Assembly: GCF_037042905.1 (NCBI RefSeq)
Contig: NC_087250.1
Location: 8,744,001-8,808,000 of the forward strand
Direction: 5' to 3'
DNA from: Lytechinus pictus
Lineage: Eukaryota
DNA: 64,000 nucleotides
In this document: piece after piece, positions 6,518 through 39,837 of the stretch
How the letters are laid out: the number at the start of each line of letters is the position of its first letter
Numbering within the stretch: position 1 is the stretch's first letter
Made by a program: the position numbers and the translations under genes
The notes under the pieces: generated by a model
Databases searched by the model: none
Told to the model about the DNA's origin: nothing
What the model saw: only the letters and a program-made list of their open reading frames with translations

Positions 6518-6769
6518 TTTTGTTTAAAATTTCACCTATCTGATTCTTAGAATTTTTAATCACATTTCTGCGCTCAGTCATCCACTTATCTCACTTATTG
6601 ATCTTTGTCCAATACACACACTCCTATTCCTTCCATAAATGAGTTTACTTGAGCGAGAAAAAAAATGAAACACATGAAAACAACATATACATTTGTATTT
6701 ATTAATGTAATTTAATATGTATTAATGAATACAAATAAATAGATAAACACACACACACATATATATCTT

Positions 6770-9700
6770 CCTATCACAGCTACATGAAGATACATGTAAT
6801 TTCATCTTCCTCTCACAGTTACATGAAGATAATTTTATCTTCGTTACACAGCTACATGAAGATAATTTCATCTTCCTCTCACAGCTACATGAAGATAATT
6901 TCATCTTCCTCTCACAGCTACATGAAGATAATTTCATCTTTGTTACACAGCTACATGAAGATAATTTTATCTTCGTTACACAGCTACATGAAGATAACTT
7001 CATTTTCCTCTTACAGCTACATGAAGATAATTTCATCTTCGTTACACAGCTACATTAAGATAATGTCATCTTCCTCTTTCAGCTACATGAAGATAACTTC
7101 ATTTTCCTCTTACAGCTACATGAAGATAATTTCATCTTCGTTACACAGCTACATTAAGATAATTTCATCTTCCTCTTTCAGCTACATGAAGATAATTTCA
7201 TCTTCGTTACACAGCTACATGAAGATAATTTCATCTTCCTCTCACAGCTACATGAAGATAATTTCATCTTTGTTACACAGCTACATGAAGATAATTTCAT
7301 CTTCGTTACACAGCTACATGAAGATAACTTCATTTTCCTCTTACAGCTACATGAAGATAATTTCATCTTCGTTACACAGCTACATGAAGATAATTTCATC
7401 TTCCTCTCACAGCTACATGAAGATAATTTCATCTTCCTCTCACAGCTACATGAAGATAATTTCATCTTTGTTACACAGCTACATGAAGATAATTTTATCT
7501 TCGTTACACAGCTACATGAAGATAACTTCATTTTCCTCTTACAGCTACATGAAGATAATTTCATCTTCGTTACACAGCTACATTAAGATAATTTCATCTT
7601 CCTCTTTCAGCTACATGAAGATAATTTCATCTTCGTTACACAGCTACATGAAGATAATTTCATCTTCCTCTCACAGCTACATGAAGATAATTTCATCTTT
7701 GTTACACAGCTACATGAAGATAATTTCATCTTCGTTACACAGCTACATGAAGATAACTTCATTTTCCTCTTACAGCTACATGAAGATAATTTTATCTTCG
7801 TTACACAGCTACATGAAGATAATTTCATCTTCCTCTCACAGCTACATGAAGATAATTTCATCTTCCTCTCACAGCTACATGAAGATAATTTCATCTTTGT
7901 TACACAGCTACATGAAGATAATTTTATCTTCGTTACACAGCTACATGAAGATAACTTCATTTTCCTCTTACAGCTACATGAAGATAATTTCATCTTCGTT
8001 ACACAGCTACATTAAGATAATTTCATCTTCCTCTTTCAGCTACATGAAGATAATTTCATCTTCGTTACACAGCTACATGAAGATAATTTCATCTTCCTCT
8101 CACAGCTACATGAAGATAATTTCATCTTTGTTACACAGCTACATGAAGATAATTTCATCTTCGTTACACAGCTACATGAAGATAACTTCATTTTCCTCTC
8201 ACAGTTACATGAAGATAATTTTATCTTCGTTACACAGCTACATGAAGATAATTTCATCTTCCTCTCACAGCTACATGAAGATAATTTCATCTTTGTTACA
8301 CAGCTACATGAAGATAATTTCATCTTCGTTACACAGCTACATGAAGATAACTTCATTTTCCTCTCACAGTTACATGAAGATAATTTTATCTTCGTTACAC
8401 AGCTACATGAAGATAATTTCATCTTCCTCTCACAGCTACATGAAGATAATTTCATCTTTGTTACACAGCTACATGAAGATAATTTCATCTTCGTTACACA
8501 GCTACATGAAGATAATTTCATCTTTGTTACACAGCTACATGAAGATAATTTCATCATCCTCTTTCAGCTACATGAAGATAATTTCATCTTCGTTACACAG
8601 CTACATTAAGATAATTTCATCTTCCTCTTTCAGCTACATGAAGATAATTTCATCTTCGTTACACAGCTACATTAAGATACATGTAATGTCATCTTCCTCA
8701 AAACAGGTTCATGGAGATATAATTTCATCTTCATTTAACACCTACATAAAGATAATTTCATCTTCGTTTAACAGCTGCATGAAGATAATTTCATCTTCCT
8801 CTAAACAGCTACATGAAGATAATTTCATCTTCCTCTAAACAGCTACATGAAGATAATTTCATCTTTCTCTAATAGCTACATGAAGATAATTTCATCTTCC
8901 TTAAACAACTATATGAAGATAATTTCATCTTCCTCTATTAGCTGCTACATGAAGATAATTTCATCTTCATTTAACAGCTACATGAATATTATTTCATCTT
9001 CCTCTAAACAGCTGCACGAAGATAATTTCATCTTCATTTAATGGCTACATGAAGATAATTTCATCTTCGTTACACAGCTACATTAAGATAATTTCATCTT
9101 CCTCTTTCAGCTACATGAAGATAATTTCATCTTCGTTACACAGCTACATGAAGATAATTTCATCTTCCTCTCACAGCTACATGAAGATAATTTCATCTTT
9201 GTTACACAGCTACATGAAGATAATTTCATCTTCGTTACACAGCTACATGAAGATAACTTCATTTTCCTCTTACAGCTACATGAAGATAATTTTATCTTCG
9301 TTACACAGCTACATGAAGATAATTTCATCTTCCTCTCACAGCTACATGAAGATAATTTCATCTTCCTCTCACAGCTACATGAAGATAATTTCATCTTTGT
9401 TACACAGCTACATGAAGATAATTTTATCTTCGTTACACAGCTACATGAAGATAACTTCATTTTCCTCTTACAGCTACATGAAGATAATTTCATCTTCGTT
9501 ACACAGCTACATTAAGATAATTTCATCTTCCTCTTTCAGCTACATGAAGATAATTTCATCTTCGTTACACAGCTACATGAAGATAATTTCATCTTCCTCT
9601 CACAGCTACATGAAGATAATTTCATCTTTGTTACACAGCTACATGAAGATAATTTCATCTTCGTTACACAGCTACATGAAGATAACTTCATTTTCCTCTC

Positions 9701-10740
9701 ACAGTTACATGAAGATAATTTTATCTTCGTTACACAGCTACATGAAGATAATTTCATCTTCCTCTCACAGCTACATGAAGATAATTTCATCTTTGTTACA
9801 CAGCTACATGAAGATAATTTCATCTTCGTTACACAGCTACATGAAGATAACTTCATTTTCCTCTCACAGTTACATGAAGATAATTTTATCTTCGTTACAC
9901 AGCTACATGAAGATAATTTCATCTTCCTCTCACAGCTACATGAAGATAATTTCATCTTTGTTACACAGCTACATGAAGATAATTTCATCTTCGTTACACA
10001 GCTACATGAAGATAATTTCATCTTTGTTACACAGCTACATGAAGATAATTTCATCATCCTCTTTCAGCTACATGAAGATAATTTCATCTTCGTTACACAG
10101 CTACATTAAGATAATTTCATCTTCCTCTTTCAGCTACATGAAGATAATTTCATCTTCGTTACACAGCTACATTAAGATACATGTAATGTCATCTTCCTCA
10201 AAACAGGTTCATGGAGATATAATTTCATCTTCATTTAACACCTACATAAAGATAATTTCATCTTCGTTTAACAGCTGCATGAAGATAATTTCATCTTCCT
10301 CTAAACAGCTACATGAAGATAATTTCATCTTCCTCTAAACAGCTACATGAAGATAATTTCATCTTTCTCTAATAGCTACATGAAGATAATTTCATCTTCC
10401 TTAAACAACTATATGAAGATAATTTCATCTTCCTCTATTAGCTGCTACATGAAGATAATTTCATCTTCATTTAACAGCTACATGAATATTATTTCATCTT
10501 CCTCTAAACAGCTGCACGAAGATAATTTCATCTTCATTTAATGGCTACATGAAGATAATTTCATCTTCCTTAAACAGCTTCATGAATATGATTTCATCTT
10601 AATTTTGATCAACATTAGCATAATTTCATCTTCCTTAAACAGCTCCATGCCTATAATTTCATATTCCTAAAACAGCTAAATTATGATAAATACATCTTCT
10701 CCAAAAAGCTACATGATGATAATTTTATCTCAGTTAAACA
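6770..10740. repeat. 33-bp satellite with 429-bp and 1500-bp higher-order structure
   Basis: Unit cagctacatgaagataatttcatcttc(ctct/gtta)ca; lines 7561/9061 and 8701/10201 are identical; divergent units at the right edge. Confidence 0.97.
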
Positions 10741-35276: not shown

Positions 35277-36261
35277 ATAACATAATTAACTCTGACATGT
35301 TCGGTAAGGTAATCTCGTTCAAAACTATGGAACGCCAAGTGTGTACGTGCTACGACACTACAATCCTCCTATCTTGCGGATTGAACTCAACAGCACAAAT
35401 ATGTGATTTGCTCTTTACACAAGAGACATTTTTAACGTTGTGCAAGTACTGTTTGGTTAGCTTATTAACTTGTTAGCTACTGAGCCATTGCATGCAAGAC
35501 GCATATAAGTAAACCAGAATATAAACAAAAACAGAAATTGATTGTTTGATAAATCTGTATCACTTGACTATATGATAAGATGTGTCACTTGATGAGAATA
35601 ATGCTATCATTTGCATACAAGAAATTAATAATACATGTAGTGAGTTGTTTGTCATTGTTTCTCTTAATGATGCTACATGTATGTATTTGAAACTTCATAC
35701 TTTCATATACTGTGTGCTTCAATTTTACTTTAGAAACAAGCTGCGTGGATTGTGTGAACACAAAATAGTTTTGTATCAAACATACTAACTACAAATGTCA
35801 AAACAAACTTTGTTATTCATTTCAAACTAAGCTAACAACAAACTATCTGACCTGTTTTAAACTATACTACAAATCAAATTTTTTGCTTATTTAAATTTAA
35901 TGCAGAGAGACTTTTCTCTTAAAGTATACACCAAATAATGTCTTTTGACTCTTTTCCTTGACACTAAAGCAAATAACACTGTTAGCACATGACTAAATTC
36001 CAAAATAATCATAAAGAGACTTTCTTCTGTTAGTTTGTTCTACTCTGGTATCATGTTCATATACATATAGATATTACTTCCGTTAGCACAAAACACAATA
36101 TACCAACAATCTTATGTGAGCGTGTGTGTCTACTATTCAATTTCCAACTATTTCTGGCTATCTAGATACATGTTTCATCTTGCATATAATACAAATGATG
36201 CACATACATAATCTTTTTTTCTTTTTTTTTGCAACAAATAAGGCATACTGTATGCATATGT

Positions 36262-36395
36262 GGAGCGTTGTGGCCCAGTGGATTAGTCTCCGGACTTTGA
36301 AACAGAGGGTCGTGGGTTCGAATCCCAGCCATGGCGTAATTTACTTCAGCAAGAAATTTATCCACATTGTGCTGCACTCAACCCAGGTGAGGTGA
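36262..36395 (+). mobile_element. tRNA-derived SINE, 5' half
   Basis: A box tggcccagtgg, B box ggttcgaatcc, core gtgctgcactcaacccaggtg; ends abruptly at cccttgtaaaaaa. Confidence 0.85.
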
Positions 36396-36407
36396 CCCTT
36401 GTAAAAA

Positions 36408-37075
36408 AGTACTGCGGTAGTACTGCGGTACAAGTACCGCAGTACTACCGCAGTACAAGTACTGCGGTAGTACTCGTGGTAAATTGGTCGGTACTACTGC
36501 GGTAGTACCGCGGTAGTACCGCAGTACCTGTACTGCGGTAGTACCGCGGTACCTATACTGCGGTAGTACTGCAGTAGTACCGCAGTACAGGTACTGCGGT
36601 AGTACCGCAGTACCTGTACTGCGGTAGTACCGCGGTACCTATACTGCGGTAGTACCGCAGTAGTACTGCAGTAGTACCGCGGTACCTATACTGCGGTAGT
36701 ACCGCAGTACAGGTACTGCGGTAGTACCGCGGTACCTGTACTGCGGTAGTACCGCGGTACCTGTACTGCGGTAGTACCGCGGTACCTATACTGCGGTAGT
36801 ACCGCAGTAGTACTGCCGTAGTACCGCAGTACCTGTACTGCGGTAGTACCGCGGTACCTATACTGCGGTAGTACCGCAGTACAGGTACTGCGGTAGTACC
36901 GCGGTACCTGTACTGCGGTAGTACCGCGGTACCTGTACTGCGGTAGTACCGCGGTACCTATACTGCGGTACTACCGCAGTAGTACCGCTGTACCTGTAAA
37001 CCTGTACTGCGATAGTACTGCGATAGTACCGTGGTACCTGTACCATGGTACTACCCTGGTGCTACTGCGGTACTT
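36408..37075. repeat. GC-rich quasi-palindromic array (gtactgcggtagtaccgc), probable subterminal repeat of a CACTA/EnSpm-like end
   Basis: Directly follows CCCTTGTAAAAAA at 36396. Confidence 0.8.
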
Positions 37076-37203: not shown

Positions 37204-38000
37204 GTTTTAACATCTGTAATCATGTACTTTCTTACTAACATGACTAAGTTTTGGCACACACAATGGCTAAATGGTTGGTTGAGGTAACGGGATTCCTGAA
37301 GTTTTAGCACACACAATGGCTGAATGGTTGGTTGAAGTAAAGGCAAGTTAAAGTTATATGCTTAATATTTTACATGATAAAAACTGTAGTGAAAATCATC
37401 TGTACTCGAGTTGCAACAAAAACAAAGATATCTAACATCTCTACTTTAGTACTTTTATAACAACTATGACTAACGAGTTTTAGGTTCACGCACAATGTTT
37501 GTGGTGAAGGCAAGTTGAGATTACGCTTCATATAAAAAGTCTATACAATTTCCAAGAACTGTTGAGTTGTAAAACACTGTCCACGTACTTGTATCAAAGT
37601 TGCAACAAAAACATAAATCTTCCAATCTTTGACAAGGTAAGTAAATAGAAGTAAAACATGATTATTTAAAACCATTAAAACTAAACACATGCATCATATA
37701 TGTAGAAATTGCAGCAGATAATCTATCAATAATATCTCAAAACTGTAGTTAAAAACATCTCTACTGAGTTGCAACAAAAACATGTAGATATCTAACATCT
37801 CTACTTTAGTACTTTTTTATAACTACTATGACTAACGAGTTTTAGGTTCGAGCACAATGTTTATGGTAAAGGCAAGTTGAGATTACGCTTCATATAAAGT
37901 CTATAAAATTTTCAAGAACTGTTGAGTTGTAAAACACGTACTTGTATCCAAGTTGGAACAAAAACATACATCAATCAAGTTCCTTCCAATCTTTGACAAG

Positions 38001-38450
38001 TAACACGAATAATACAGTCAATTCAATCTTTATTTCCAAATAAAGATTGAATTGAGCGGAGAATTAAACTGACCATAAATATATATTATAGGTAATAAAG
38101 AGCAAAGAAAATGGGGTTCCATCGGGATTCGAACCCGAGACCTCCGGATTGCTAGCCCGGTGCTCTACCGACTGAGCTATGGACGGCCCTAGTCGATAAT
38201 TCGTCCCATAAACCCCTTAACTTTCAATGCTCGTATGGTCAGAAGCTATAGAAACCTGACATAAACCCAAAGGATAGAATCAACTTTATAGGCCTATGCG
38301 AGGGATCACGGCGAAGTGATGCAGCTTTTTGAATATATAATTAACACGAATAATACAGTCAATTCAATCTTTATTTCCAAATAAAGATTGAATTGAGTGG
38401 AGAATTAAACTGAACATAAATATATATTATAGGTAATGAAGAGCAAAGAA
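38001..38450 (-). mobile_element. Short element with ~110-bp terminal direct repeats, central tRNA-like sequence and 13-bp TSD
   Basis: Repeats 38001-38111 and 38342-38452; TSD aatctttgacaag; empty site at ~37624. Confidence 0.8.
38113..38186 (-). pseudogene. tRNA-Ala(AGC)-like sequence
   Basis: D arm gctcagtcggtagagc, anticodon arm ccggg-ctAGCaa-tccgg, T arm tcgggttcgaatcccga; acceptor stem only partly paired. Confidence 0.65.
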
Positions 38451-39837
38451 AATCTTTGACAAGGTAAGTAAATAGAAGTAAAATATGATTATTTAAAATA
38501 ATGAATCATAAATAAATAAATGAATCATATATGTAGAAATTGTAGCAGATAATCTATCAATAATATCTCAAAACTGTAGTTAAAAACATCTGTACTGAGT
38601 TGCAACAAAAACATGAAGATATCTAACATCTCTACTTTAGTACTTTTTTATAACTACTACAGATAATCTATCAATAATATAACAATATTTGTTACAGCAC
38701 TTTATCAATGTGACCTTACACAACAAATAAGTAGGGTAAATATATTGTGTACACATATAGAAGACAATGCCTTTAAAATGTTACATGAGCATACTTTGTT
38801 ATTTGGCACAAGGCAAAGTTTTTAAAGGACGAGAGGAAATTTGCCACTTAAATAAATGGCGTCAAACGCATACACATTATCAAAGTTATTTTTCAGCACA
38901 CAATGAATACATTTCAGCAATATCTTTGGCAAATAGAGTACGGAACAATCAGGAACATGAAATAATTTGGTATATTCCCGTCATTCAAAATCATAACAAA
39001 AGCAATTTTAATTCCATTCGCTTTTGTTTAAAGACCAGATTAACAATACCAAATGTCTCAAATTTTAATGCATGTTTGAGGCAATTTAGGTTCCCCATAT
39101 AAATTTTGATGTCTTCCAAGAGACGTAGTTTCTTGTTAGTCTGATTTGATTCCATTCTTCAAGGTGAATTTGGGCTTTTATCCGTAGATCATATATAAAT
39201 GCCATTTTTTGCACAAAAAAATCTCAAATTGTTTCCTTATCAGATCAAAATTTACTCAACAAGAAAGTTCTTGACACTTATTTGTTTAGAAGGGTGCCAA
39301 CAAAGAACACTGATTGATGCGTGCGCACTGTCATTTGATATCCACATGCCAAAACATAAAATTTAATATATTAGTACCAGCTGGACGGAAAACACAATAC
39401 ATGCCTAGAATTGATGTGATGGCCCATGAAGAGCTTTTTATCAAAATAGCTTTAGAAACAGGTGAAATGTTAAAGATCATCAAGCGTTGGGATGCTACGC
39501 TACAGATCGCCATTTTGAACTAGGCTAGTTTGTGCGCAAGATGGCACTGTGTGTATGATAAACGATGCAGGAGCACCTTTAATATATCAGATAAGGATAA
39601 TTCTGGCCCCTATTAAAACATTATTATTATTTTTTTTAATGTTGGTCTGTAGCAAGCATTATAGCAATGTAGCAATGCCTGTGGTCTAAAACATATTCCA
39701 ATCAACCAAAAAAATACACAGGAGCGACGGGCGATTCAGAAGTGCCAGAAACGTACCAAACATGGCATACTCGGATAGGTCGCATCATGATGATCATACT
39801 AAATTATATTTGGAACAGAATATGCATGTGCTTGTTA

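Follow-up and report, generated by a model that had tools for sequence, protein, structure and literature searches.

The question raised by this locus is what kind of mobile element could have left, in a 64,000-nucleotide stretch of Lytechinus pictus DNA (contig NC_087250.1; the window hereafter), a short insertion in which a tRNA-like sequence is found together with two direct repeats. The original prediction was a SINE-like element whose central tRNA-Ala-like sequence lies between terminal repeats and which was copied from circular or tandem RNA. The window itself is A+T-rich and crowded with transposon fragments, and matches to Mutator-like, KDZ, gag-protease and PHD sequences were obtained for 5 of the 18 open reading frames scanned, together with 1 further stray match. 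Other features of the window include a 4-kb array of a 33-bp unit (6765-10730), one frame of which stays open for up to 699 codons; a truncated tRNA-headed SINE (36260-36395), which we take to belong to a sea-urchin family and which is interrupted by a palindromic satellite; and a G+C-rich, 25-bp (11+14) tandem satellite (36407-37042), the palindromic units of which form perfect hairpins of 23-24 bp.

The element lies in a host tandem repeat with a unit of ~360 bp, of which about three partial units occupy 37393-38659. The 13-mer aatctttgacaag is found in the window only at 37624, 37988 and 38451. As had been predicted, the neighboring unit preserves the empty site: no insert interrupts the unit at 37624, which is identical at 327 of 348 aligned positions to the filled unit stripped of its insert. 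Thus, the segment 38001-38450 was inserted later, and it is a genuine mobile-element insertion of 450 bp, which corresponds to 1.33 copies of a 341-bp unit. The 13-mer claimed as a target-site duplication (TSD) is present at both ends of the insert, but the duplication opens with the three bases (aat, 38451-38453) with which the right repeat closes, so that the TSD is 10-13 bp long. No microhomology was found at the left junction (38000/38001). On the minus strand, the TSD ends in ATT, which is a weak signal for a 3-mer in A+T-rich DNA. A splice-donor-like sequence (caag/gtaagt) at the end of the target site (37633-37642 and 38460-38469) recurs with the ~360-bp host unit. The features of the locus are listed in Table 1.

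Table 1. Positions of the insertion, its parts and its target site in the window.
Feature	Position	Strand	Basis
Empty site in the neighboring ~360-bp host tandem unit	37624-37636	+	
Left TSD, 13 bp	37988-38000	+	
Left repeat; corresponds on the minus strand to the 3' tail of the full unit	38001-38112	-	
Perfect 18-bp palindromic hairpin with AATAAA in both arms	38018-38055	.	
T4 run directly behind CCA; putative Pol III terminator	38108-38111	-	
tRNA-like unit	38112-38189	-	ARAGORN, Rfam, pairing analysis
5' strand of the 27-bp interrupted helix (partner 38069-38119) enclosing the tRNA and T4	38210-38242	-	predicted fold
Distal block of the spacer, containing a 5-bp hairpin; approximate limits, estimated from the depths of bins	38298-38328	-	
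Right repeat; putative 5'-truncated upstream copy (pseudo-LTR)	38342-38453	-	
Second copy of the 18-bp hairpin	38359-38396	.	
Right TSD; first 3 bases common with the repeat end (microhomology)	38451-38463	+	

The two direct repeats of ~110 bp with a hairpin in each, and the description of the insert as a 1.3-mer of a 341-bp monomer, were both confirmed. The repeats are 112 bp long, are identical at 109 of 112 positions (3 differences) and are spaced 341 bp apart, and each of them carries a perfect 18-bp hairpin with a 2-nt loop, while no perfect arm exceeded 11 bp among 2000 dinucleotide-shuffled versions of the repeat. The hairpin arm consists of AATAAA followed by TTGAA units, and no further copies of this motif were found in the window. 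The palindrome contains no G-U pair and folds equally well on both strands. In size, the 18-bp stem matches an Argonaute-sliced short hairpin, and its position, 55 nt behind the tRNA-like Pol III unit, may be compared with that in tRNA-hairpin cassettes; given that it is free of G-U pairs, the stem suits DNA foldback better than an Argonaute-type hairpin. The parts of the unit vary from 24 to 64% in G+C content and are mostly A+T-rich. There is no open reading frame of more than 50 codons within the element and no poly(A) or tandem-repeat 3' end at 38001.

ARAGORN identified the tRNA-like unit at 38112-38185 with the anticodon AGC, and the match to Rfam RF00005 (55.8 bits) covered model positions 4-67 only. 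The proposed central tRNA-Ala-like unit is thus tRNA-like, but its strand is the minus strand, and it adjoins the left repeat instead of being central. Its D, anticodon and T arms are fully paired, and both the A box (38179-38168) and the B box (38135-38125) are intact; the acceptor stem consists of the 4 inner pairs, and the outer three do not form. The determinant of alanine identity is G3:U70. Position 3:70 of the tRNA-like unit is G:A, and only the anticodon supports the name Ala. This pair, the incomplete 7-bp acceptor stem and the partial Rfam match disagree with a functional tRNA-Ala gene. In sequencing run X10 (see below), about 1/6 of the depth has 38151 G>A, which changes the anticodon to AGT, and a threonine ancestry is possible. 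Judged by its sequence, the tRNA-like unit is probably a Pol III promoter module and not an alanine tRNA.

The tRNA-like unit ends in CCA (38114-38112), and the T4 that follows immediately is the sole T4 on the minus strand of the monomer; a depletion of T4 on this strand was considered and was not significant (1 observed vs. 3.2 expected, P 0.09). The only plus-strand T5 of the monomer (38325-38329) closes the spacer, so that the interior is flanked by outward-facing T runs on both strands. On the minus strand, the order of the parts is tail (112), linker, leader (about 150), tRNA, T4 and tail (112). About 260 bp of the element are placed upstream of the tRNA, and the start of the element does not coincide with the tRNA head. 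The right repeat begins on the minus strand at the A/T4 that comes after the tRNA CCA, which places the truncation point of the upstream copy no more than 4 nt from the tRNA 3' end. Such closeness has a chance of about 2% if truncation is uniform over 341 nt, for a feature that was picked post hoc. Possible causes are cleavage by RNase Z, the terminator, stalling of the reverse transcriptase (RT) at the tRNA and the ATT microhomology.

The junction between the repeat and the tRNA-like unit also invites comparison with TRIM-like LTR elements. The repeats would then be LTRs and the antisense tRNA an over-long primer-binding site (PBS), possibly served by the element's own T4-terminated tRNA-like RNA. 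Consistent with this, the plus-strand left repeat ends exactly at TGG, the complement of CCA, in the position of a PBS; the insertion is shorter than 1 kb; and tRNA-derived parts are known in TRIMs, as in Helenus (PMC10886601). However, the insert ends are TAACAC..GAAAAT and not TG..CA, a polypurine tract (PPT) is absent from the insert (purines make up 45% on either side), the TSD of 10-13 bp exceeds the 4-5 bp of such elements, and the tRNA is complete and outside the repeats. We regard a TRIM-like origin as the least likely of the explanations considered here.

The structured spacer of the original prediction was borne out in part. The stems that had been named exist, but the spacer alone (38190-38335) folds no better than its shuffles (z of +0.27 on the plus strand and +0.73 on the minus strand), and the spacer as an unusually structured RNA was rejected. 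The significant structure is a long-range helix on the minus strand that had not been listed. The region 38062-38250, from which the 18-bp hairpin is excluded, gave a z of -4.54 for the minus strand (0 of 200 shuffles), while the plus strand gave -2.79 (2 of 200); the minus-strand value is attributed to the 27-bp interrupted helix. Its pair probabilities are 0.72-1.0, and its duplex energy is -33.4 kcal/mol. When only the chosen pieces were shuffled, 1 of 2000 shuffles attained this energy; a look-elsewhere control that allowed the whole spacer gave 7 of 1000. The minus-strand fold of the monomer has a z of -5.26, which is partly owed to the 18-bp hairpin. The predicted helix buries the CCA end and T4; the cloverleaf is compatible with 25 of the 27 helix pairs, yet this combination is 14 kcal/mol worse than the free fold. 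G-U pairs account for 14 of the 105 pairs of the minus-strand fold vs. 1 of the 92 pairs of the plus-strand fold, suggesting that the RNA is the minus strand.

To look for relatives, 4 of 23 sequencing runs (X1, X9, X10 and X21) were compared with the element at 85% likeness. In X10 (organism C, 930 million letters), 1422 contigs matched. The summed depth was 747-801 thousand over 38100-38171, 176 thousand over 38172-38207, 3-8 thousand over 38208-38279 and 32-49 thousand over 38280-38351, with 98 thousand at 38310. It should be noted that the single listed contigs have depths of 23-74 and that summed depth is not copy number; we infer hundreds to about ten thousand copies in organism C. In all six listed joints, one contig each, a tRNA/leader piece is linked to a more distant piece of the spacer, with the order of this element retained, and none of the six is a tandem (go-back) joint. 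The abundance of the interior and the constant order of these joints argue that the interior is a conserved mobile family and not a chance chimera. An ordinary 5'-tRNA SINE, which had been named as the case that would speak against the prediction, is made less probable by these homologues, which keep the leader and the distal block linked to the tRNA. Many pieces in X10 end near the tRNA, and a 2397-base contig shows the tRNA piece only. The terminal repeat is unmatched in X10 at 85% except for its last 13 bases (38100-38112); the match stops at 38100, where the loose ends are A+T-rich with an agreement of 0.55.

Two differences in organism C bear on the predicted RNA. At 38310, 97 of the 98 thousand depth lacks 2 loop bases (38310-38311) of the 5-bp hairpin at 38305-38320, which, as we read the position of the gap, leaves a C-UUCG-G loop on the minus strand with the folding energy barely changed. 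In addition, the G-run at 38113-38116 is one base shorter (38116 G>A, 502 of 623 thousand), and the partner C-run is likewise three long in the consensus of the loose ends (26 contigs, agreement 0.78). The loop deletion and the matching shortening of the G- and C-runs agree with the predicted RNA as two hints, which are distinct from a covariation test.

Fewer matches were found elsewhere. In X9 (organism B), the left junction of the same locus was covered at a depth of 3 by 172 bases with 0 substitutions and 1 gap, and no contig covered 38208-38459. Near-identical copies of the whole element thus seem few in X9, although holes in contig sets prove little. A 31-base contig of X9, with a depth of 13000 and 2 differences, matches the A-box half of the tRNA (38153-38181, 29 bases), and another very abundant tRNA-related repeat apparently shares this half. 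In X1, from the host organism, the locus was found with 0 differences together with one diverged 55-base tRNA fragment, and BLAST found no second copy in the window. The element looks rare in the host, which comes close to the single-copy case that had also been named as speaking against the prediction. Pattern scans of viral contigs yielded 0 matches in three scans. The single match in a scan of metagenome contigs (inside a bacterial-looking coding region, without a tRNA) and the 4 matches in a scan of genome contigs (21-28 bases, without a tRNA) were dismissed as chance.

The apparent rarity of the element in the host and the absence of a counterpart of the repeat in organism C would be expected if the insertion resulted from an event at the DNA level, in which a piece of a tandem array or a small 341-bp DNA circle was pasted at a staggered break, or a repeat of the donor locus was duplicated once. 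The direct repeats would then be peculiar to this single copy. The 18-bp palindrome, which forms equally on both strands as DNA foldback would, and the position of the insertion inside a host tandem repeat are also in line with such an event. Against it are the clean TSD of 10-13 bp, the conservation of the repeat end (38100-38112) with the tRNA in organism C and its pairing with the leader, and the truncation so close to the tRNA 3' end, with the post hoc caveat given above. We consider a DNA-level origin improbable.

The transfer of the element by a LINE has more in its favor. A SINE-like element with the order leader, tRNA and tail could have become a 1.33-mer if the RT of a LINE, on reaching the 5' end of a first RNA, had switched to the 3' end of another, followed by truncation. 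The tRNA boxes are intact and are followed by a tail of ~110 nt. TSDs of 10-13 bp and a 3-nt microhomology at the 5' end are ordinary in target-primed reverse transcription. The AATAAA and TTGAA units of the hairpin arm may be reminiscent of L2/CR1-type tails. The six listed joints of X10 without a tandem joint and the many pieces that end near the tRNA also speak for it. However, the 3' end lies 17 nt past the AATAAA/TTGAA motif and has neither a simple-repeat tail nor an A tail; transcription by Pol III from the tRNA cannot include the 150-nt upstream leader, which is conserved and linked with the distal block in X10; and T4 is directly behind the tRNA. This explanation is the main rival of the one proposed below; it is possible, but we would not call it probable.

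The original prediction further held that no canonical hammerhead core is present and that another self-cleaving motif may be involved. The former statement was supported by all searches, and the latter by none. In Rfam, no ribozyme was found at E<=5, in the spacer as in the rest of the element, and the sub-threshold matches (HPnc0260, Plastid-ycf2, mir-4637 and others) were rejected as antisense tRNA or hairpin. Scans for core motifs found no hammerhead. Descriptors applied to both strands of the doubled monomer, with the minimal hammerhead definition taken from PMC4209133, detected neither a hammerhead, whether canonical, of the U3-A8 type or with one mismatch, nor an HDV-like fold. The hammerhead descriptor recovered 50 of 50 toy motifs in a control, while the HDV-like descriptor was used without a positive control and matched 1 of 20 shuffles. 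Together with the unremarkable z of the spacer given above, these empty searches lend no support to a self-cleaving motif there.

The RNA reads likewise gave no indication of a circle. In X21, raw rRNA-depleted RNA of which 6% of one run was covered, the host element region (1051 bases) attracted 12 reads of both strands among 8.7 million records, and none of the 12 contained a go-back joint. The element thus looks barely transcribed in the host, with no sign of an abundant circle, and the suggested circular RNA was not detected within this part of the run. A 371-base self-closing contig of X1 was rejected as a circle, as its closure is explained by the genomic repeats. Also in X1, a 6337-base contig with a depth of 63 begins in the right repeat (38368-38610 and beyond) and runs into the right flank, while the depth is 8 in the interior of the element and none over the left flank (37848-37991). 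A host transcript may end or start inside the repeat, where AATAAA is in both arms of the hairpin; contigs show neither strand nor ends.

These results bear on a true retrozyme copied from a 341-nt circle by means of an undescribed self-cleaving motif. Its size and geometry match those of retrozymes, the minus-strand fold is compact (see above for the share of the 18-bp hairpin in its z), a block of ~30 nt is conserved across organisms, and Sm-alpha provides a precedent for tRNA-derived SINE-like repeats that can carry ribozymes (PMC2770079). The empty Rfam and descriptor searches, and the lack of abundant RNA or of a go-back joint in the 6% of X21, weigh against it, and we judge this origin to be very improbable. 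By definition, the insertion is neither a retrozyme nor a TRIM. Of the Penelope/retrozyme-like origin proposed originally, the 1.3-mer geometry, long TSD, unit size, absence of LTR hallmarks and one-strand RNA fold fit, and the ribozyme and the circle were not supported.

We propose, at about even chances, that the insertion is a non-autonomous Penelope-like (PLE) partial tandem (pseudo-LTR) without a ribozyme, copied from a more-than-unit minus-strand RNA. This explanation is favored because of the pseudo-LTR layout, the size, G+C content and TSD, the priming properties of PLEs in vitro, and the existence of Naiad and Chlamys without canonical hammerheads. In Penelope, the pseudo-LTR pattern is a full unit preceded by a 5'-truncated unit (PMC2377424; PMC8557442), and a partial tandem of this kind is found in the one insertion described here. 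Non-autonomous Chlamys elements that carry pLTRs are described in PMC8557442, as is a clade in which canonical hammerheads are absent, and the animal non-LTR retrozymes have been proposed to be non-autonomous PLE derivatives (bioRxiv 10.64898/2026.07.22.740005). With purified PLE RT, the start site was reported to be non-homologous to the target, 5'-ATT-3' to be preferred and hammerhead cleavage to be dispensable in vitro (PMC11167929).

Under the proposed PLE mechanism, the unit would be transcribed on the minus strand of a tandem donor as a more-than-unit RNA, either by Pol III from the tRNA boxes, reading through T4, or by Pol II from the A+T-rich tail. The GIY-YIG endonuclease of a PLE would nick A+T-rich DNA with a stagger of 10-13 nt, and the RT would begin, without homology to the target, at the fixed end 38001, 17 nt past the 18-bp hairpin. 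It would copy the tail, the tRNA, the leader and the second tail and halt where the next tRNA would start, and the end of the cDNA could be joined to the second nick through a 3-nt microhomology (ATT). In this mechanism, the tRNA module may serve as a promoter, a processing signal or both, rather than as a decoding tRNA. Counting against the PLE explanation, T4 after the tRNA should stop Pol III, the PLE helper is presumed, and neither a 30-40-bp PLE "tail" nor an inverted copy is visible in this single insertion. Also on this side are the window and the contig collections, which yielded no second full copy, the terminal repeat without a counterpart in X10 beyond its last 13 bases, the six listed X10 joints without a tandem, the apparently few near-identical copies in X9 and the 12 reads without a go-back joint in the covered 6% of X21. 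The repeat motifs are absent from the supplement text of PMC8557442, in which line breaks can hide matches. In a literature search of titles and abstract openings, neither these sequences nor a PLE derivative that bears a tRNA and lacks a ribozyme came up; the family may be recorded in Repbase, Dfam, subscription journals or bioRxiv supplements, which lay outside this search.

An extension of the PLE explanation, which we consider speculative and unlikely, is that sea urchins harbor a ribozyme-free class of retrozymes, PLE parasites in which a tRNA mimic replaces the hammerhead and the helix acts as a switch. In such a class, termination by Pol III at T4 and cleavage by RNase Z or RNase P would cut the more-than-unit RNA into templates, and the helix that buries the CCA end and the terminator would toggle between a short tRNA-like transcript and a transposable read-through RNA. 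This would account for the upstream copy that begins so near the tRNA 3' end.

The insertion bears on the origin of PLE pseudo-LTRs and tandem insertions and on the role of the hammerhead in them. If the PLE explanation is true, this short, protein-free and ribozyme-free unit, which nevertheless inserts as a partial tandem, would offer a minimal substrate with which the requirements of a PLE RT could be tested, a tRNA module would be able to stand in for a ribozyme, and such units would be an extra source of false tRNA calls in invertebrate genomes. If the insertion is a SINE dimer or a one-off duplication, it would be a curiosity.

Among known systems, the tRNA-derived SINEs (SINE2) also begin with a tRNA that contains A and B boxes, continue with a tail and are flanked by a TSD, but here a conserved 150-nt leader is upstream, T4 is right behind the tRNA, the tail is duplicated and there is no A or repeat tail. 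Helenus and TRIMp3 (Kojima, 2024; PMC10886601) are likewise short, are bounded by direct repeats and include a tRNA-like sequence in which A and B boxes are present. In Helenus, however, the tRNA is inside each LTR, and a PBS, a PPT and 4-5-bp TSDs are described (PMC10886601), none of which is found here; the element-specific motifs are absent from the supplement text of that paper, where line breaks can hide matches. Sm-alpha and Sj-alpha of Schistosoma (PMC2770079) are tRNA-related SINE-like repeat families tied to the retrozyme world, but Sm-alpha is described there as carrying a hammerhead and as present in tens of thousands of copies, while the element here has no hammerhead and has its leader upstream of the tRNA.

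The animal non-LTR retrozymes (Cervera and de la Pena, 2020, PMC7229834; Li, Clavereau and Pollet, 2026, bioRxiv 10.64898/2026.07.22.740005) have a non-coding, low-G+C unit of 150-450 bp, more-than-unit insertions, a TSD of more than 4 bp, no LTR or PPT and a compact predicted fold. The element here is similar, with a non-coding unit of 341 bp inserted as 1.33 copies, a G+C content mostly below 50%, no LTR or PPT, a TSD of 10-13 bp and a compact predicted fold. It differs in that those retrozymes have a type I hammerhead in each unit, which is absent here, and abundant RNA, circles and multimers, none of which was seen for this element in the covered 6% of X21 or among the six listed joints of X10, and in that a tRNA-like unit is present here. 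Internal tRNA boxes, which are present here, are not described in the cited passages on PLEs (PMC2377424; PMC8557442; PMC11167929). The PLEs nevertheless share with this insertion the full unit together with a 5'-truncated unit, an A+T-rich target with ATT at the nick and no homology at the priming end (PMC2377424; PMC11167929), and Naiad and Chlamys (PMC8557442, which also deals with MRC1) resemble it in being described without canonical hammerheads.
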